Below are positions 466-14,300 of a stretch of DNA of 64,000 nucleotides, piece after piece. The notes beneath the pieces were generated by a model, which had not been told where the DNA came from, made no database searches, and saw nothing but the letters and a program-made list of their open reading frames with translations. Source of the stretch: Podarcis pityusensis. Its lineage: Eukaryota. The stretch is taken from the NCBI GenBank assembly GCA_964106645.2, contig OZ067040.1; one strand, given 5' to 3'. Each line of letters opens with the position of its first letter. Position 1 is the stretch's first letter. Position numbers and translations under genes: made by a program.

Positions 466-858
466 TTATTTGTACCCCGCCAATCTGGCTGGGTTTCCCC
501 AGCCACTCTGGGTGGCTTCCATAGAAACCAAAAACACTAAAATATCATACATTAAAAACTTCCCTGAACAGGGCTGCCTTAAGATGTCTTCTGAATGTCA
601 GGTAGTTGTTTATCGTTTTGACATCTGATGGGAGGGCGTTCCACAGGGCGGGCACCACTACCGAGAAGGCCCTCTGCCTGGTTCCCTGTAGCTTTGCTTC
701 TCGCAATGAGGGAACCGCCAGAAGGCCCTCGGCGCTGGATCTCAGCGTCCAGGCAGAATGATGGGGGTGGAGACGCTCCTTCAGGTATACTGGACCGAGG
801 CCGTTTAGGGCTTTAAAGGTCAACACCAGCACTTTGAATTGTGCTCGGAAACGTACTG
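416..858 (-). mobile_element. L2-clade LINE, 5'-truncated 3' end with (TTA)n tail
   Basis: ORF 545-832(-) KALNGLGPVYL..LRSS..RAFSVVVPALWNALP..FRRHLKAALF is an L2 ORF2 C-terminus; followed by the 3'UTR stem-loop and AATAAAT(TAT)n at 416-470. Confidence 0.9.
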
Positions 859-1104
859 AAAAGATGCCAGAATACTGGCACCGTGTGTGGCAAATGAATC
901 TCTATGACAGGGATGGGGAACCTGACCTCAATAGGCAACAATGACAGGTGGGCAGGGACACCCTGTTAACCACCTAACATCATTATTGTATTCAGTCATA
1001 AGACTGTGCCACTGAGCTCATACATTCATACATATATACATACATAAAAAAGTTCAAGGCTACAGAAAAGTATCAGAGCTGTTAAGAACCACCTATCCAC
1101 TACA

Positions 1105-2501: not shown

Positions 2502-2642
2502 CTCGTCTGTAGCACCTTTGTTCCTTTTGAAGTCTTCCCTTGCCCAGTCCCTGAGGTAATGGCGATCAGCTTCATTAGGCACCTGACGAACAGCCTTCAA
2601 AATTTTTCTATACAACTGAAGGACCTGCTGCCTTCTCAAGAA
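2502..2642 (-). CDS. LYRM2: LYR motif-containing protein 2, coding exon 2
   Basis: FLRRQQVLQLYRKILKAVRQVPNEADRHYLRDWAREDFKRNKGATDE; LYR motif; ttgcag acceptor and GTGAGA donor; 141 nt, phase 0/0. Confidence 0.95.
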
Positions 2643-3367
2643 CTGCAAGGTATCAAGAAAAATAAAGGATGACCCTTTTACTGTTTGCACGATCTAGTGT
2701 TGATCATGTGCTCACAGCCTCATGGAAAGGTGTCTTAAACCGAGTCAGGTGACTGATAAAACTTTTGTATTCGTTGTCTATTCCAGGGATGTCAACCTGT
2801 GGCATGCTAGCTGGAGTTGTTGGCAGAGTCCAAAAACATCAGGAGGGTGACATGTTCCACCCTTCATCTGCTCTGAATGTCAGATGCTCTCTAGATCTCA
2901 AGTAGAGAGATCCTTTTAACTGGAGTCTGAACCTATGTATATAACCTATGGATGTAGTAATCCCACTACGGGGTCCATCTGCTTTCTGCTGCAAACCACA
3001 GTCTATAAATCAGTTATTCTAACTAGCGCCCTCCCATGCTGTTCCATTTACGGTCATCTATAAAATCACTCCAAAAGTAGAATAAAGGTAACCTTGAGTT
3101 TTAAAACATTTGACAGGATCCTAACAATGATTCAAACACTGCAATGAAGAGGCCCATGTGCAACACAAATCACCACTTACTACACTATGAAAGAAAAATA
3201 GTTATTTTCTGTAATTCAAAACAAATAAATCTTTAAATGAAAAAAGACGGAAGATATGTGAATACATTAATGCGTTCACATGTAAAACGCAATGTTTTCC
3301 AAACTACCAGTTACCATACATCCACTATTGCCCATTCATTTATAAATTGTCTCACTTAAAATATTAA

Positions 3368-3556
3368 TTTTAAAAATTTAAGAAATTGTCCAGTAGCACC
3401 TTATAGACCAACTAAGTTGTTCTGGTATAAGCTTTTGTGTGCAGGTATCTGAAGGCATCTGAAGACGTGTGAAAAAACTTAGTTGGTCTATAAGGTGCTA
3501 CTGGACATTCCTCCCTCCCCCGACTGCATCAGACCAACACAGCTACCTACCTGAAT
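3368..3556. mobile_element. Penelope-like element remnant with inverted terminal repeat
   Basis: Perfect 32-bp inverted repeat 3387-3418/3476-3507; 12-bp flanking direct repeat TTAAAATATTAA (3356-3367, 3557-3568); CTGAAGA..GAAA remnant. Confidence 0.65.
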
Positions 3557-4899
3557 TTAAAATATTAAGTTAAAAAGCTCAGATGCAAAACACACAATGC
3601 CACAGGTAAAGCACTCATCTGCGTAAGATTTCCGCAAGTACCACTGTCCCATTTACATGCAGAGTGTAAATGCCTGAGTTATGGACCTGTGACAAGCTTG
3701 TGCTACACATGAATGGCCAAACTCATGTGGAGCACATGTTTATAAGGGCAAGCACTTGTTCCCATCTTTGCAAGGTCTGCTAGCAAAGCAGAGATGAGGC
3801 CTTGTTTACCCAGAAAGTTCTATCAGTTCAACTCGTGTTAATTCCTCTGCTATTCACAGCAACCAGAATGCTAAAATTCTGCAGGAGTACAAACTCCTTT
3901 TCGAAAAGAAAAGAAACCTAAGTTCTTGATTTTTTTTTCATAGAACAAAAATATAGGTTGCTTTTCTATTTCCTACACTCTTGCCCTGTCCACTACAGAG
4001 GGTAGGGCAGTAAAAAAATGTAAGAAGTGGATCCAAGAACAATTCTAGGACATCACCTGCTCATCATCCCCTCCTGGGTCAAAAAGCAGTAAAGGTATAT
4101 GTTCCATCACCTAAAATGTGAAGAAACAGGACAGAAGCAAGCATGCCTATCCAAATAACCCCTAGATGCTATTGCTAAATGCTATTGCTCAGACGAATAT
4201 AAATGCAGCCTTAATGGGGTCCCCATCACTCCTGCGAAGGGTGAACATAAACATGCCATATACAAACTATACTATTTACACCAACTTTCCTTTTCCTGCG
4301 GAAAATCAGCTGGCAAAGCTTTTCCTCAGCATGCAAATGCTAAGGTGAAAGCAGCTCGAGGAAAAGAGGATAGAGGCTGGAGAAGGAACAGTGGGGTGGT
4401 GAGATGTCCTTTTCCCACCTTTGGGACCCCCTGGGCAACCTGGAACTGGGTGTGGAGAGCGTTGTCCGACTGCTAAAAGGGACATCCTGAGGAAGCCGCT
4501 CCCACCTGCCCACAAAAGCAAGCCCAGACTGAAAAGCTCGGGTGCTGCCAGGAGTTTCTAGGATCCTTCCTCTTCCCGGAATTTTTGCGGAAGAGCTGCG
4601 AGTTTATTTGGGCTCTGGGTGAGAGGCGTGGGAAGGAGAAGGAACCAATCCCGATTTATGTATTAGCAGTAATGTTGTAGTTATGTCATATGCAACTGCT
4701 TGTTGTTGTTTTTTTAAAAAAAACTGGTTACAGTATCGCTTAAGTTGCTGCTATAGCTTCCGTTTCTTGTTCACAACTTTACATTTTTAAATTAAGCGGT
4801 ATAGAAATGGAATTAGTAATAGAAATAATCAACAGGAATGGCTACGCCCCTGACCTAAAGGTAGCAAAGCCATTACAGTATTGCCTGCTGCTGCTGTCC

Positions 4900-5470
4900 C
4901 CCGACCCTGCAGTCTCCTCCAATGCCCGGTCGCCAAGCCTAGACCCTGCTCTTGCCTCGCCGAGGAAAGGGCGAAGAGTCGCCTCGCTGGTGGGCACCTG
5001 CCTTCCCTTCCCTCTCTACCTGCTTCAGAGTGAGCGCCGTCGGGGGCAGCCGGGACGACGCCATGACTGAGGGGCGCGCGCGCGCGCGCTTCGCTTCGGC
5101 GTGGTTCTTCCTTCTCTGCGCTCTGCCGAGGCGCGTCAGAGGAAAGGGAAGCGGAGGCTCTCCCTTCCCCGCCCGGCGTCTCTCTCCAGGCTCTTGGGAA
5201 GAACGAGGTTGCGGCGCCGGGCAGCTCCGCGAGGAGGGAAAGAAAAACTCTGCTTTTGCGCGGCGAGCGGCTCAGCAGGCCACCCTTCGCGCAGGGTTGC
5301 AAGAGAGAAGCGCGCGCACTTTGCCGATATTTGGAAAGGACGGCGCAGGGTGGGCCGAGAGCGGCTCCTCCTCTGAAAACTGAAGGGCGGAACGGACTCC
5401 TGCAGCCTCGCCGACGAAGCAGCCCTTCCGGCCAGAGCTAAGCGGAGCCCAAGTAAAGGGCCCGAGAGAG
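4900..5470 (-). promoter_or_regulatory. CpG-island promoter of LYRM2
   Basis: Dense CpG/GC-rich stretch around exon 1; GC boxes (5167-5174, 5385-5390), ETS core CCGGAAG (5425-5431, minus), (GC)8 at 5074-5089. Confidence 0.85.
5020..5064 (-). CDS. LYRM2: LYR motif-containing protein 2, coding exon 1
   Basis: ATG GCG TCG TCC CGG = MASSRLPPTALTLKQ, then CAG|GTAGAG donor; matches the LYRM2 N-terminus; in phase with exon 2. Confidence 0.93.
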
Positions 5471-7330
5471 GGCTTTGAAAGAGTTTTACTCTTTCATGGC
5501 AGCGTCAAGCACAACGGCGATTGCTCCAAGCACCTTTTTAACCTCGTTAGATTTACATCTGCCTTCATCCACCTTTCAACAAACGTTCCCCACAAAGACT
5601 CAAATAAGTGATTTATTTGCAAATCACTTTGCATATAAGTGGAATATTTACTCACAGATTCCAGAAGCTGCAACGAAACAAGCCCTCCGTCAGCTGGCAG
5701 TGAAACAAACGACCCAAGAAGGCAAAGAACTTCGTTTCCTTACAAATAAGCATCGTGTATGTATAGCACAGGTGCAGGCTTTTCAAATCTGCCTTTTGGA
5801 GAGATCCAGTTCACCTGCAGGATCAGCTGAGCTGGGAGCCAAAGCCACATGACTCCTCCTCCTCTTGCTCCAGGAAGAGAACACACAAACACAGAGAGAG
5901 AAAGGGAGGGGGGAAGCAGAAGCTACTGTGAGCCTGCTAAGCCCCAACCTGAGCTCTGGTTAACCCTCATGCAACTAGCTTTATGTATATTACAACAAAA
6001 AAGTACTTTCTACAGGTTCAGAGGTACACATGTAAGTGCATAAGGTCCAAGGCTAAGTATTGCAGTTAAGGTGACATAGGCCTGTGCCTGAGAGCAAGCT
6101 TGAAGTTCTAACTCTGGTGACATCACTAGTGGCCCTTTTTAATCAGTGAAAGACTGCTTCCATCAGAAGTTAAACAGCTTTAACAGTACAGAGATATTCT
6201 TTACCCTATTGCAACACAACTGAACTTGTTAAAGTAGGAATAAAAGGCATCTTCCTATTTTTTAACATCCTTTGGAGAAAGCCCAAACATTGATACACAT
6301 TTTTGCATCATTTAGGTTTTGATAATAGTGCTATGTAACTTCTATTCAAAACTTTTTTTAAAAAAATAGCAGTTATTTGTATTTGCTGATAGTAAATTGT
6401 TTAATCAAAATTAACGCAGAAGTTGCTAAGTATGAATTTGGAGCATGATTTATCAACTCCTTTCCTACAACTTTGTTTTTCTTTGATAAATCGAGGAAGG
6501 TTGAGGGGGAGGGACTAATCCAAAGGAAAAATTGGGCATAAATATCACATCATTTGAGCATCTTTCACTCCTTTCACTTTGGACGTTTCATATGAGCTTT
6601 CCCTTGCTGCCCAATTTTAGCACTGCTGATTCTATTATCTAATTAGGGTTTCTCAGTTCTGCATCAACAATCAATATTTGGCTTGCAATGCCAGCATTTT
6701 ATCAAGCTTCTTATGCTATTAATCTCATGTATTTTTTCCCTGTAATGCTTAAATTCTAAGTGAATGTGTCCGAAGACTCGTCCTTAAACATTAAATATTC
6801 TGTGTGGTTATCCAAAGGGGCTAACTTAAGTCACCCCTCAATGTGACAGTTGTTTACAGAGAAAACTATGGTGACAAAATTAACTGTCAAAACATAGAAA
6901 TCAGGCTTGGATTTGCCCTCTGAACAGAGCAAAACAAAGGGCTCCGGGTCATCCATGTAGCTTTCAAAATTATTTTCTCCAAGAAGGCCTTAAGTGCGTC
7001 TTTCAGGAAAACGTCATCAGCCCAAGCTCTTGTCCAGCTTCGTTTCCCTGGAGCTGGAGACAAATGCATGGAGCTCTTTGACAAATGCATAGCAACAATG
7101 GCTGGCTTTTTTCTTTTTAGGTCTTCTATTATTGTTTCCCTGGTACTGAATTCCTTCTTTATCTTCTGTAGAGAGAGAAGGGCAAATTCCAAGAGGCCTT
7201 GTGATCAATCAATGGACCCATCTTTGTCCATTCTGGAAAGAAGCTGGAGAAATCTGCATCTGATGGTGAACACGTTTCTTTTATGGGCTGTGCAAGCAAA
7301 GCACACGTCATGTGATGAGTGCTTTTACCT
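5230..7330 (-). pseudogene. Highly decayed hAT-superfamily transposase (ZNF862/C17orf113-like) fossil
   Basis: Motifs in the correct order across frameshifts and stops: MTCAL(C)TAHKRNVFTIRC (~7311-7256), DHKAS (7192-7206), FLKDAL..SPLFC (~7010-6930), TSDGSS (SDG 6159-6167), LELQACSQA (6085-6111), VMWLW..NW (5853-5806), KFFAF (5718-5732), FPNIGKV..P.....C (5337-5275). Confidence 0.6.
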
Positions 7331-7485
7331 GGAAGGGGTGGGGAGGAAGCAGACCTGAGGTCACAGTAGCGCAGGAAGGTCAGGCCCACTCAAGACCAAT
7401 TCTATTAAGTTCCCAAGATTCTTAATATAGAATCTTAATATTCCAACAAATAATGGACACCACAATTACAAACAGCAAAACATTG

Positions 7486-7491
7486 TTTATT
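7486..7491 (-). terminator. MDN1 polyadenylation signal
   Basis: AATAAA (minus) ~700 nt after the stop, followed by a GU/U-rich downstream tract (TTTTGCTGTTTGTAATTGTGGTGT). Confidence 0.75.
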
Positions 7492-8191
7492 AGTAATCAC
7501 GACTGATGCATAGCTTTTGCAATGAAAAAAGTTGGGGGGGGCAGGGAATAGGAGATGACAGAAAGAGCCTTGGGCATGCTTTCAGGATACTAAAATGTGT
7601 TTATCACTATTTCCCTTGAACAGAGGGCAAAGTTCACAGTGTAAAATGATAACGCGGAGTCTTTCTCTAAAAAAACTACTCTTCCAGCATTATCATAAAA
7701 CCAGCAACTGTTCAGCGACAGTTTCAAGTATTCAAGTAGGATTTGTGGTGGTTGTGGGTTTTTTTGGTTGTGTAAAATTCAACCCTTCCTCGAAACACAG
7801 GGTCCCACTAACACATGTGACCCAAAACAGACAAGTATTCTTTAATTATGGTTAATCATTCTAGTTGCAACTTCCTCTCAGAAGGAAACTAGTTTCTTAC
7901 TACTACAGAAAATAGTCTTGGGAGCCACTTATTTCTTAGTGGTACAGAAATAAGAATAAATTATACAAAGAGTAAAAAAAAAAGGAGATGGTTTTCCACT
8001 GTTTTCAGATATAGGCAAGAAAGTGAGCAGTCTGTTAGTTCATCACCGTTTGCATAGTCTCCTGCACTGTTAAGGGGAAAAATGCATGTTATGTTAGTGT
8101 GTAATTTCTGGCCCGTCTGAACAGCAACTCAAATTTGCTGACGACCTTTGCCATTAACTGGTAACCATGTGTTCACATGACCTGCCAAATT

Positions 8192-8380
8192 TTACATGTT
8201 GTCTGAACCAGTCACCAGTTCAAACCACTGCCTCAGTGCGTCACTGAGGGTCTCTGGGAGGGCATTCACATCTCTCAGAATGATGTAGAAAGGAAAGGGA
8301 AATTCCTCCATGTATGACCTGATTTCTGGCAATTCCCCTGGGCCTTTGAACACAGGTACTTTAATGTCCAAGATGGAATC
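8192..8380 (-). CDS. MDN1: MDN1 exon 66/66 (terminal)
   Basis: DSILDIKVPVFKGPGELPEIRSYMEEFPFPFY...QWFELVTGSDNM*; TAA at 8192-8194. Confidence 0.95.
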   Translation of the reverse strand, partial: DSILDIKVPVFKGPGELPEIRSYMEEFPFPFYIILRDVNALPETLSDALRQWFELVTGSDNM

Positions 8381-11300
8381 CTGTGAATTAAAATGACAGT
8401 ATCAGATACAGGACTACACAAGTAGCATTATGCAGCTAGGATCAATGAAAAAAGTTGCCTCCCTCAGTCCTCATCTCTCACCAATCTCCTGAGTCAATTC
8501 ATTCTGTTTTCAAATAAGTGGACTGTAGCCTTTGCAGGCAATCCTAACAATAGTTACTGAAGACTAAAGCAGGAGGTCACTAAGGGAGAGAATATTAGTG
8601 CTGATTTCAGGGCTGTCACCATACACTACTTATAGCTTTTTTACTACTCCATGTGGTCTTTTATAGTATAGTCTCCATGCACAATTTGCTACCTGTGATT
8701 GGAAAGAAACGTAACACAGTAGGAATACTAAATGCCAGTATTGTGGCAGGGAATGTCAAGACAAAGATGCCCGCAGAACTCTGTTCCTTGATTTGGAACC
8801 TGCAAAGTCAGGCTGAGAATAACCTGAGCTGGACCTCCAATGGAAAGGGACTTGTCGCTTTCCTCACCAAGGTGAGAGGCAGAAGAAGCTGGATTTAAAT
8901 ATCAAAAAAACTACTTTGCAGGAAAGGTAGTCAGCAATTAACCATGGAAGTTTGTAAAGATTAGGCAAATTTTCTTGTCAGCAAAATGAATGTTGAAGGC
9001 AAGAACCAGAAATAAGTGCAGATGAAAGTAGATTTTTCCTTACAGTATGAAACCTCAGCTCCCAAATCTATGGTTGGCAGGAAGCTTGACTAGTTTAATA
9101 TAGTTTTTCATATACAGGATGCCTCGGACCTATTTTAAACCCAACCAAGGCGATTTTTCCACCCAGTTAAAAGTAGTACAATTATCTGATGGTTCATTTA
9201 CTCACCCGTGAATTAGGGTTGTCCAACACTACAAAAATGACAAAGATATTTGCATTCTGAACAGATTGAACAGCTGCCGTGACACGTTCTTTGCCTTCGA
9301 GAAAAAGACCTCTTCCATCTGACACTATTAGGAGTAGCTGAGCAGTTTCTATTGAGAAAGGCATGTTTTCAGTTTTAGCAAACAAAACTAGAAAAAGGGT
9401 ACATATTCAGTCTTACTAACATTTTCTATTACTTTAACATACAAGCGGACATGAAAGCCAGCCCCAAGAACAAAGTTTTATGTATAAAAATAGTATAAAA
9501 TATATCCCTGAATGGGATGTGAAAGCTTTGCTTCCCAAAAATGGGACACGAAATTTAAAGTAAGACAATCAATGCTTATGAATGTTCTAAAAGCAACAGG
9601 AAGAAACATCCCCACTGTCCAGTAGTAGTGCCAACAAAGAAGAAACACAAATTAAAATATTAATCTGAGAAGAGCTCACAAAGCTAGCCCAATCATGTCT
9701 TGCCACAACCAAGTCCTACCCAATAACAGGGCTTACTCCCCACATACGTTGGGCTAGGATTTCAGCCTTATTTACTAACAATTGCCGTTTGTGTATTCAG
9801 CATTCTGCCAAGAGAGCCATGCTCCTGATAAATCCAATGAAGAACTATTTCGACTACCATGCCTAACTTGTTTGTATACAAAAAAGGAGGGGGGAACTCA
9901 CCTGGATTAATGTTTTGAGAGAACTGCTGTGCTGCAGCAAACATATTTGTTGAGGATTCTAGGAACTGTAGAAAAGTGAGAGAATATATGTGCATCAGCT
10001 GTGAGCTAACAATTTCTTTTCTAAGACAATTGTTCTACAGAAATGAATGGGAATGCAAGTCGAGAACTGCAGCCTAAGGTTGTGAACTCAAAATAGACTT
10101 AAAATTATACAGCAGCCACATTATTTCCTTCGCTGTTTTGAAGGGGCTGCAGTAAACATAAGACTGCACCACTCTTTTTTGTTACAAGCAATATACCAGG
10201 CTAGTGCAGAGACAAGACCATTTTCTTCTTGTAACATTCTAAGGACAAATTGGACAGGAAAGTAAAAGAACTAACCTAAGAACACCCTTAGCCTGGCACA
10301 ATAGTTATTTAAACACAACATAGGAACTTTTAATGAAAAAAGGCAGCCCCACTCATCCAAGATGAGAGATACCTGAGCTATTTTAGTTTTCTTTTGTTCA
10401 AATTTGCACAGCTGGAGTATTCTCGTTCCCGACTGATCATTGAATTGTTCGTGGAATGGGTGTAGCAGCTGAACAGCCTCTCCAAAACTGAAATAAAATG
10501 AAACATTTTAAAACACTGCACTGAGCAGGAGTAAAAAGATTTCTATGACGACAAGTCCGGCTTTAAAATAGCCTTACCTGCACACAGCAATTTGTCCCAC
10601 TTCTAAGAGTGACAAAGCATTTCCAATCACTGCCAGGGATTCATAAGCAAGCTATAGAAAACAAATAAAAGTTTGAGTCTGTTGTATATCTAAGCTAAGA
10701 ACATAGAATTCACCACAGAACAGTTAACAAACTGCAGAATTCTAACACTGCTTCATGCATTTGTCATGGACCGAAAACGCACTGTGATATGTGATACTAT
10801 CGGAGAAGCAAAGGAATTAGAAAATGGAATGATATACCCCTGCAATGCAATCTGCACTTGCTTGTAACTTTCCCCCTTAGGTGAAAATTTCCCCACTGCT
10901 AAACTCCCTGCTGCAGGGAAAGAAATGCATGCTCATCCATCACAGCCATATGATTACCCCCCTATATCCCTGTCGCTATCCCTGACCTTGTTAAACAAGC
11001 ATCTGGTGTTAAGTAAATCCCATGGTGGCAGACAGAGGGAAGCAAACAGTAGCAGCCATGCTGACAAGAGAGAAGGAACAGCAATGAAGTGGGGAAATGC
11101 CTTCTGTATAGTTAACTGCAAGTTTGATGCGTGAAAGATTAATGCTGAATTCATTCATATAAGACTTTTAAGTTGGCTTCTTCACCATTTCTGTTTTACC
11201 TGCTTAGAGTGGTTGTCTACCATACTGGCAGAGTCATCAAGGGCCAAGCAGATCTGGTACTGCCTTTTGCTGGGCTTGGTCCTCCGTAACCAAATTTTAT

Positions 11301-14300
11301 CTTTTCGGAACTGGCTTGCAACATATGGAATTACTTTGCGCATGTTCAGCCTTTTTCCTGTTCGATAATCACCTCTGGTAGTTAAGAAGAAAAGGCACAA
11401 TATTAACAATAACACTGTTGCTGGGGGAGGAAAAAACAACTTGGGATATCCTTTTCAGAGAAAGTATTTTACATGAACTGGTAGATAATGAATAGCCAAA
11501 AATAAGACAGCTTTTTCGGGCATCAAGATTCATTACTTGCACACCTATGTAACTGTCCTGATATTTAGAGGAGCCAGGCCTATTTGCATATTGCTTCTTA
11601 TTTTGCATAATTTATTTCAGTTTCACATGGGTGGGTCGAATTTCCCCTCTGAGATTTCAGCAGGCAATGCCTACAAAGGCTGGACATGTTTCCTTTCAGG
11701 GAAAAATAAGCTTCTCCAGAATCTTTAATATGGAACTTGCTACTAAACCTGTGTGGAAATCCACTTGTGTTGGGAGGAGAGCAGGAAGGTGATTTTCTGC
11801 CAATAATTCCTCCTCCACCCTCTGCAAAGCTGCTCTAGGAGGTTGAATGACTCCCCAGAGCAGCAGGAGAAGCAGCATGGGCAGCTGCAGGAGAAATTGG
11901 CAAAAATATGCTCCTTCCCTCTTTCCTCCAACACTGGAAACCAGCCGTCCCTGTGAATGAAAAGAGCTCTTTTGTTCATGATACGGTTTGATCCGGAGAA
12001 GTGTCCAGATCAAACCATATCAACGAGGGATGGTGGCCTGCCAGACATGGTTGGACTACAACTCCCATCAGCCTCAGGCAGCATGGCCAATGGTCAGGCA
12101 TAATGGGAGTTGTAGTCCAACGACATTTGAACACTGGCTCCCCATCCCTACTACATACTTTTCTTCATGCATACATGCAAACGACACACATGTACCTCTG
12201 ATGAAGTGGACTTTTGTCCACAAAAAGCTTATACTATAATAAATGTGATACAACAGACGAATATGGCTACACCTCTGGAAATAGTGGCCTGTGTCAAATC
12301 AAAACCTACAGCGCTTTAACTTTCAAGGTACTATGTAAAATGAATGACTTAACAAACACATTTACACCACACATAATGCAACAGGCAGTCTAGAATCACT
12401 TTGATTTCTTGCCATTGACTCCAGCAGGAAGTGAATGATACATCCTATAGTAACAATATGCTAAAGCAGTTCTAGCTGGAAGACGGCTTGGGTGCCAAAT
12501 CGCGATGTATGGGGCTCTGCTTTTATTTTTACAGTGACCCAACTTACTTCAGCTTGGCTGCCTGAGTTGGCTCCAGTATGAGTCTCAGCTGCTCACAGAG
12601 CTGCTGTGAAAGTGGTGCAGTGAGGAGGAGATATCTCTGCCACATCTCTGCTGCTGCCTTTTCCTGCAACATTAAGATAAAAAAACCCATATAATTTTTG
12701 TTAGTAAAGTTAAAAGCCCAGAGAATTAACCCTTTTTATACATAAATCCCTTTCCCAAGTACAAAACCTAAATAATTCAGGATATATCAGTTGCAAATAC
12801 TTTTATAGTGATGCTTTTAAAAATAATTCTTGCTAGAACTTTCGAGTATAGCTTTGTCTTGGCATCCTGTGGTACAAACTGGTCAGCTGCTAAGGGTCTT
12901 TATATGTATAATTGCCGTCCATGTATTGCAGAAGATTATCAGCATCTACAATTCTGCTCCTTGCTCTGTAGTGATTAAGCAGTACCAGAACCCAATATTT
13001 AACATGGCTTTGGAAATAATGTGTTAATATTCCATTTATATTCAATAAATACTTTCCAAAAGAATTATGCAAGTGTATATTGCTTGACTGAACGATTCAC
13101 TAACCTCAGTAGCGTTTCCACTCTGCCAAACTTCCAGTTGCATCTCTAGTTCTCGTCTTAGCTCTTCAGGATCCTTAACAATGCACTTAAAATAACAAAT
13201 TGGAATTTGAATCAAACAATATGGACAGGTATTTTAGAATGACATACTTGCTACATACATGCATACATACATACATAAAAAGGTAAAGGGACCCCTGACC
13301 ATTAGGTCCAGTCGTGACCGACTCTGGGGTTGCGGCGCTCATCTCGCTTTATTGGCCAAGGGAGCTGGCGTACAGCTTCCGGGTCATGTGGCCAGCATGA
13401 CTAAGCCGCTTCTGGCAAACCAGAGCAGCGCACGGAAACACTGTTTACCTTCCCGCTGGAGCGGTACCTATTTATCTGCTTGCACTTTGACGTGCTTTAG
13501 AACTGCTAGGTTGGCAGGAGCAGGGACCGAGCAATGGGAGCTCACCCCATCGCAGGGATTTGAACCGCCGACCTTCTGATCGGCAAGTCCTAGGCTCTGT
13601 GGTTTAACCCACAGCGCCACACGCGTCCCTACATACATACATACCTCCAAAAGCAAACTTTAAAAAAACCCACCACATAACACATCCCTTATTTTTTTAG
13701 GAGAACTTTTAGTGTTCTGGACCACTGGATAGCAACAATTAAGGAGAAATTTTAAATTTACTTTTCTACTCATGGCAAAAAATTATGTGCATGCAGCATA
13801 TTAACCGTACTTATCTCCTCTCTGAACCACATGACCAAGCCCAAATCTGATTTATCTCCTTGTATGCTGGGGGTCTGGAGGAAAACAGAGATCCTCACAT
13901 CCAGCTGCAAATATCTCCATGACTGGTATTTTCTAAATTTCCCCCATCCATCGAGGGAAATCTCCATGCAGATGCAAGTTTCTGCATGAATTTACTGAGG
14001 TGGCTCAGATTGTGCACATGTAAAGCTACCAGAGCTGAATCTCTGCAGAGAGCATGTTGCCCCCAAACTCAAGGATTTCCAGCCCTCCAAATAAGTAATC
14101 CGTGTTGTCAAAGCTGAGAGTGTTGACTCGATTATAGACAGTCCCACCTACAGGCAGCTCACTTACACATGCATTTTGAGGCCACAAGATCTGAGTTTCA
14201 ACTTGTCATTTAATAAAAGCCATCTACTTTGATGTAGGGGGAAACCTGCTTAAGTAATGTAGATCAGATGTATACCTTCCCTTCTCTAGTATCTCACAGT

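Follow-up and report, generated by a model that had tools for sequence, protein, structure and literature searches.

The two ends of the interval between MDN1 and LYRM2, at 7328-6890 and about 5340-5275 on the minus strand of the 64-kb stretch of DNA analysed here (the window), may be remnants of the head and tail of an ordinary, long-decayed hAT transposase with a repeat-filled middle, a reading to which we give an even chance. The order of the two end motifs and the distance between them are suggestive of hAT ends, and two features beyond the earlier claims, a site at 7330 that resembles a splice acceptor and an ancestral frame inferred to span 146 codons, favour hAT ancestry. A preliminary description of this DNA had placed here a near full-length transposase coding region; as a single coding region this could not be upheld, because much of the middle matches dispersed repeats, three of the claimed peptides lie inside one of them, and the spacings misfit both Hermes and Ac. 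The hAT ancestry claimed with it stays plausible, to the degree just given, for the two ends, although no search confirmed the homology.

The 3′ part of MDN1 and LYRM2, both on the minus strand, border the spacer, with the MDN1 stop just above 8191 and the LYRM2 ATG at 5063. The gene names follow the preliminary description and the known proteins, and a Midasin AAA lid was a Pfam match among the ORFs of the window. The types of repeat suggest that the animal is a lacertid-like lizard. DNA contigs of relatives came from four runs (organisms B-E), whose listing covered 40 of the 104 differences, 12 of the 21 indels and 15 of the 19 joints, and RNA-type contigs from four further runs (organisms F and G), assigned to RNA by guess, with canonical splice joints present.

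End motifs and the putative transposase head

All 12 of the claimed peptides that were looked up were indeed found on the minus strand in the order described: MTCAL (7311-7297), CTAHKRNVFTIRC (7294-7256), DHKAS (7206-7192), PAIVAMH (7105-7085), FLKDALKAFLEKII (7009-6968), SPLFC (6943-6929), TSDGSS (6170-6153), LELQACSQA (6111-6085), VMWLW (5853-5839), KFFAF (5732-5718), VNIPLI (5651-5634) and the hAT C-terminal-like peptide FPNIGK...VAC (5337-5275). They switch among three frames. TSDGSS and LELQACSQA stand at baseline contig depth between the two repeats described below, VMWLW, KFFAF and VNIPLI inside repeat A, and the C-terminal-like peptide inside both a CpG island (about 5000-5600, CpG o/e about 1.0-1.1) and the LYRM2 5′ exon. 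The frameshift of +2 nt that had been placed at the cysteine pair is unneeded, since frame 0 already reads CFAC at 7303, and the position of the W in the claimed NW (5806) holds a stop codon in almost every covering contig of the four DNA runs and in all four RNA runs. The inferred ancestral states mostly depart from the claimed motifs (W5806 to stop, F7009 to I, S5304 to P).

When at least 6 of its 10 named residues were required, the C-terminal motif had one match in 64 kb, at 5337, and the finger pattern CxxC-x3-14-NxF[TV] likewise had one, at 7303, the two standing in the correct order and 2.0 kb apart, that is 676 codons, a plausible transposase length. The 10 scored residues are those named in the preliminary description, and the finger pattern, taken to be typical of such fingers, was set after the match was seen. 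The null consisted of 2-mer shuffles within 300-base blocks, in two sets (n=150 and n=200). Taken alone, the C-terminal motif occurred in 16% of the 150 and in 41 of the 200 (21%) shuffled 64-kb windows, and the finger in 23% of the 150 and in 26 of the 200 (13%); both in order and 1.4-2.6 kb apart, with the pattern post hoc, were met in none of the 150 and one of the 200. A loose finger and the C-terminal motif occurred jointly in 0 of 200 shuffles (6/10 residues) or 30 of 200 (5/10), and any CxxC..H with the same motif in 11 or 115 of 200, respectively. The strict finger, the acceptor and the C-terminal motif coincided in none of 200, and the loose finger, the acceptor and a 5/10 C-terminal match in one of 200. 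This null under-counts cysteine motifs about twofold (CxxC..H, 48 real against 28), and likewise C-terminal matches of at least 5/10 (10 real against 4.6). Given the post hoc finger pattern, the counts for looser patterns and the under-counting null, the end-motif arrangement is not decisive.

A strong splice-acceptor-like site lies on the minus strand at 7329-7348 (16 of 17 pyrimidines and CAG, with the AG at 7330-7329), 26 bases before the first cysteine codon. It is the best of the 217 minus-strand AG sites in the spacer, and its level is reached by 4 of 4562 in the window. Directly behind it runs the putative transposase N-terminus (6890-7328, minus strand), whose frame is interrupted in the window by one additional base at 7327 and by a stop codon at 7207-7205. 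Since the base at 7327 is missing in all four DNA relatives, and since organisms C, D and E carry Arg at the 7207 stop, the ancestral frame would have been open over 146 codons from the acceptor to 6890; a run of at least 147 codons occurred in 11 of 1000 shuffles (P about 0.01). The stretch at 7192-7303 on the same strand, which we liken to TTF fingers, reads CxxC...NVFT and then DHKAS in another frame, a shift that by eye is explained by a 4-base tandem duplication near 7207. Taken together, the acceptor and the open frame slightly tip the balance towards a real transposase head.

Homology searches, coding constraint and transcribed ends

Pfam matched no hAT family in six whole frames, 66 ORFs of at least 22 residues and 19 read-through pieces, Dimer_Tnp_hAT included, which the preliminary description had named for the translated pieces, and none in 113 of the 126 long ORFs of the window, so that no hAT seed was found in it. 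No match was obtained by phmmer among 1.84 billion representative proteins for the frame with TSDGSS and KFFAF, the one frame used, which is not that of the finger, nor by word-index protein searches at E 10 (0 of 7989, 0 of 69 and 0 of 219 candidates). PDB sequences gave two chance matches and nothing relevant, Rfam two chance-level matches, and scans of contigs 466 and 28 matches by pattern, not one of which was confirmed; a short-motif match among viral contigs, at one locus with phage-tail-like ORFs, was judged to be chance. In the Atlas, two natural ORFs had best scores of 0.77 and 0.85, below 0.9, with unrelated families. One of the middle frames, a 52-residue ORF at 6834-6989 (minus strand), has thioredoxin-like nearest Atlas clusters (0.85, 101 shared features), probably by chance. 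The finger stretch had no Pfam match, and AlphaFold on single sequences gave models of low confidence, uninformative here, with a pLDDT of 42 for it and of 34 for a second sequence, for which Foldseek found no match under E 0.001. Searches of this kind have little power on a fossil broken by frameshifts, and HMMER discards matches with E above about 0.1. The statement that no TIRs are recognisable agrees with our count of 0 candidates with TIR and 8-bp TSD (null mean 0.2 over 30 shuffles), an absence expected of a very old copy; the inverted pair 5179-5200 / 7410-7431 was rejected as TIR, being one of 109 pairs and without target duplication.

Coding constraint was scored on 45 differences, 40 from DNA contigs (of 104) and 5 from RNA contigs. 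Of these, 24 lie within the claimed peptides, the frame at 7324-6890 or DESSD, 5 being synonymous and 19 non-synonymous, against a neutral expectation of 22-28% for the synonymous share. The C-terminal peptide carries 2 synonymous and 7 non-synonymous differences, which hit F1 and P15, and the 146-codon frame 2 and 6, respectively. Indels of 1 or 2 bases stand at 5534, 6257, 6352, 7169 and 7327 (among the 12 of 21 listed). The 146-codon frame is broken in organisms A and B by the 7207 stop, in E by a 2-base insertion and in G by a 184-base skip; in organism D the indels listed explain all three gaps of the covering contig, and, with 8 of its 19 substitutions listed, a stop among the other 11 is possible. 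DESSD (6782-6768) was discarded as the first-Asp motif, its last Asp being Gly in all four relatives. Judged from these sequences, there is no coding constraint today and nothing forms an intact reading frame. The idea of a lost domesticated gene, raised in the preliminary description, found no direct support, as in none of the relatives seen is the region open throughout and the differences are neutral; such differences fit a dead copy.

Canonical splice joints were present in the RNA contigs at 2642-5020 in all four runs and at 8379-9205 in two. Spliced contigs of the LYRM2 first exon (5020-5341, minus strand) reach 5341, 5290, 5308 and 5212 in the four runs, and the C-terminal motif is therefore part of a transcribed LYRM2 5′ exon. 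In three runs, contigs of the MDN1 3′ UTR (7220-8191, minus strand) extend as far as 7534, as 7475 and as 7220 or past it, a reach that cannot mark true transcript ends: those of organism F (7534 and 7475) come close to an AATAAA at 7486-7491, and that of organism G passes 7220, spanning most of the finger. The label of spacer is only partly right, since both ends of the region are inside transcribed UTRs in relatives.

It is a serious possibility, though short of probable, that there is no transposase here, and that the interval combines the 3′ UTR of MDN1, two old repeats unrelated to each other, and the promoter and 5′ exon of LYRM2, with peptides picked by chance across three frames. All homology searches were negative, each end motif alone was met in 13-23% of shuffled windows, the C-terminal motif is in a CpG island and inside spliced LYRM2 RNA, and the middle peptides sit in repeats. 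The middle ORF with the thioredoxin-like Atlas score of 0.85 indicates that frames can mimic other families, and an arrangement met at 0.1-1% per window is expected often in a scan of this size. Chance would, however, have to bring together the finger, the acceptor-like site and the long ancestral frame, with the C-terminal motif at a fitting distance, and the negative searches were low-powered for a frameshifted fossil, the most sensitive one covering a single frame other than that of the finger.

The acceptor and its frame could also be read as a lost domesticated exon: spliced at acceptor 7330, the transposase head would once have been part of a host transcript, perhaps serving MDN1 as an alternative last exon, and would have been retained for some time before dying out ahead of the divergence of these lizards; we consider this improbable. 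The acceptor is in frame with the 146-codon ancestral frame, so long an open frame would hardly last in a neutral copy of great age, the last intron of MDN1 is of phase 0 with donor 9205 and acceptor 7330 both in phase 0, and the fusion mechanism is known from Cosby et al. (bioRxiv 10.1101/2020.05.07.082677). Against this, the phase match has a one-in-three chance, three RNA contigs run unspliced across 7330, and the 10 joints listed for the four RNA runs, whose contigs cannot prove absence, include none at 7330; the breaks of the frame in organisms A, B, E and G and its 2 synonymous against 6 non-synonymous differences also speak against it. About as improbable is the further reading that an alternative last exon, once functional, added a hAT DNA-binding head in frame to the C-terminus of MDN1, a ribosome-assembly ATPase, and was retained in early squamates or amniotes but has since been lost. 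Were the exon preserved in outgroups, the locus would be of more consequence, as an example of an essential gene that acquired a transposase fusion and later lost it.

Dispersed repeats in the middle

Summed contig depth, which is not copy number, rose to 19-26x the local baseline at 5504-5579 and to 1.5-4.6x at 5732-5959, was raised in patches over 6188-6719 and stood at 3-6x at 6872-6947, being at baseline at 5276-5427, about baseline at 5960-6187 and near baseline at the finger end. Contigs that match only in patches are collinear within each of two old dispersed repeats, repeat A at about 5500-5950 (joints 5533-5785 and 5592-5905) and repeat B at about 6200-6934 (joints 6253-6642, 6324-6640, 6426-6893 and 6653-6892). 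By eye, the loose ends around repeat A look non-coding. In two runs, three contigs each depart from the window behind 6934, so that SPLFC straddles the edge of repeat B. Should the middle be inserted DNA, it would be by coincidence that the overall length of the region fits.

A core of 50-90 bases in repeat A is matched by many contigs; an exact 20-mer of this repeat had 0 matches in the contig scan, and no second copy of either repeat is present within the 64-kb window. Compared with the window, each of the four DNA relatives is longer by about 150 bases at 6286-6297 (at 6288), and organism B has an opposite-strand joint at 6389-6428 that resembles a 39-base inversion. Elsewhere, summed depth was very high in each of the four RNA runs over a short repeat at 3360-3565 in LYRM2 intron 1, a trinucleotide run lies near 400-470, and the segments at 548-901 (minus strand) and 13238-13659 are presumably fragments resembling an L2 LINE end and a Sauria-type SINE.

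A splice donor, GTGAGT at 5650-5655 (minus strand), is carried by repeat A; it is the only GTRAGT donor in the spacer and adjoins 5656-5674, of which 18 of 19 letters match an RNA contig (X20) that continues from LYRM2 exon 2 at a loose end behind 2642. This contig skips the ATG-bearing LYRM2 first exon by use of the donor. RNA contigs cover parts of 5595-5932 in all four RNA runs, and after the stop at 5742-5740, upstream of the donor at 5655, there is no in-frame ATG. The donor joined to exon 2 is a possible repeat-derived alternative 5′ exon of LYRM2, a small separate lead.

It is most unlikely that about 5500-6934 is a single ancient multi-copy element, whether of a different kind or a decayed hAT that spread as non-coding cargo, and that the flanking motifs come from something else: the joints are collinear inside repeat A and inside repeat B, and the gap of 250 bases between the two is not necessarily a boundary in view of baseline gaps of 135-150 bases within each, but an A-B link is found in none of the 15 joints listed (of 19), and the finger, the acceptor and the frame are left unexplained.

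Possible history and comparison with known hAT systems

For the reading of two hAT ends around a repeat-filled middle, we infer the origin, the order of events and the age as follows. Before the sampled lizards diverged, a hAT element with a TTF finger would have entered the interval between MDN1 and LYRM2, on the minus strand. With it would have come a splice acceptor of its own, immediately in front of the transposase frame, an arrangement often found in such elements. Deletion and the later insertion of repeats A and B would have cost the element its termini and the greater part of the catalytic core, and the remnant would then have drifted neutrally. The neighbours would have passively absorbed the remains, the tail as LYRM2 5′ exon and CpG island, the head as a long-form MDN1 3′ UTR in one relative. 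In one lacertid genome, hATs are given as 2.3% (PMC9498476). As an ordinary decayed hAT the locus would matter little, such fossils being common in lizards; if the history is true, it would be a modest case of transposon debris turned promoter and UTR of two housekeeping genes.

The proposed order of zinc finger, catalytic core and C-terminal dimerisation motif, and the overall length, resemble those of Hermes (D180, D248, R318, W319, E572) and Ac (D301, D367, R463, W464, E719), as numbered in PMC6027215. By the same source, the spacings on the map of the preliminary description differ: 106 codons here from the second Asp to the Trp against 71 in Hermes and 97 in Ac, 191 from the Trp to the Glu site against 253 and 255, 297 from the second Asp to the Glu site against 324 and 352, and 260 from SPLF to the second Asp, a gap filled by repeat B, against 68 and 66 between the two Asp residues. 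Here the Glu site is a stop, RW is absent, the first Asp is unplaced and the second has two rival placements. By eye, core-like landmarks fit either near 6164 or inside repeat B (6890-6610, near 6700), and two rival catalytic maps mean that eye matching is unspecific; repeat B, likened to a core by eye only, is not claimed as one.

ZNF862, C17orf113 and KIAA1586 are TTF-finger hAT-derived proteins encoded by intact, conserved genes. The locus resembles them, by eye only, in a finger-like CxxC...NxFT followed by a helical-looking segment, and differs from them in being broken in every genome seen and without a detectable match. In the open-licence literature we found no paper linking these three to transposases, nor one on the MDN1-LYRM2 locus.

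The host-transposase fusions of Cosby et al. (bioRxiv 10.1101/2020.05.07.082677), in whose main text, as far as it was accessible, MDN1 and LYRM2 go unmentioned, differ from the present locus, where no fusion transcript and no conserved frame were seen. Among the captured splice sites reported in the same work, eight of nine are acceptors just upstream of the transposase ORF, and in this the locus resembles such fusions, its acceptor-like site standing directly upstream of a putative transposase frame and downstream of a host gene.
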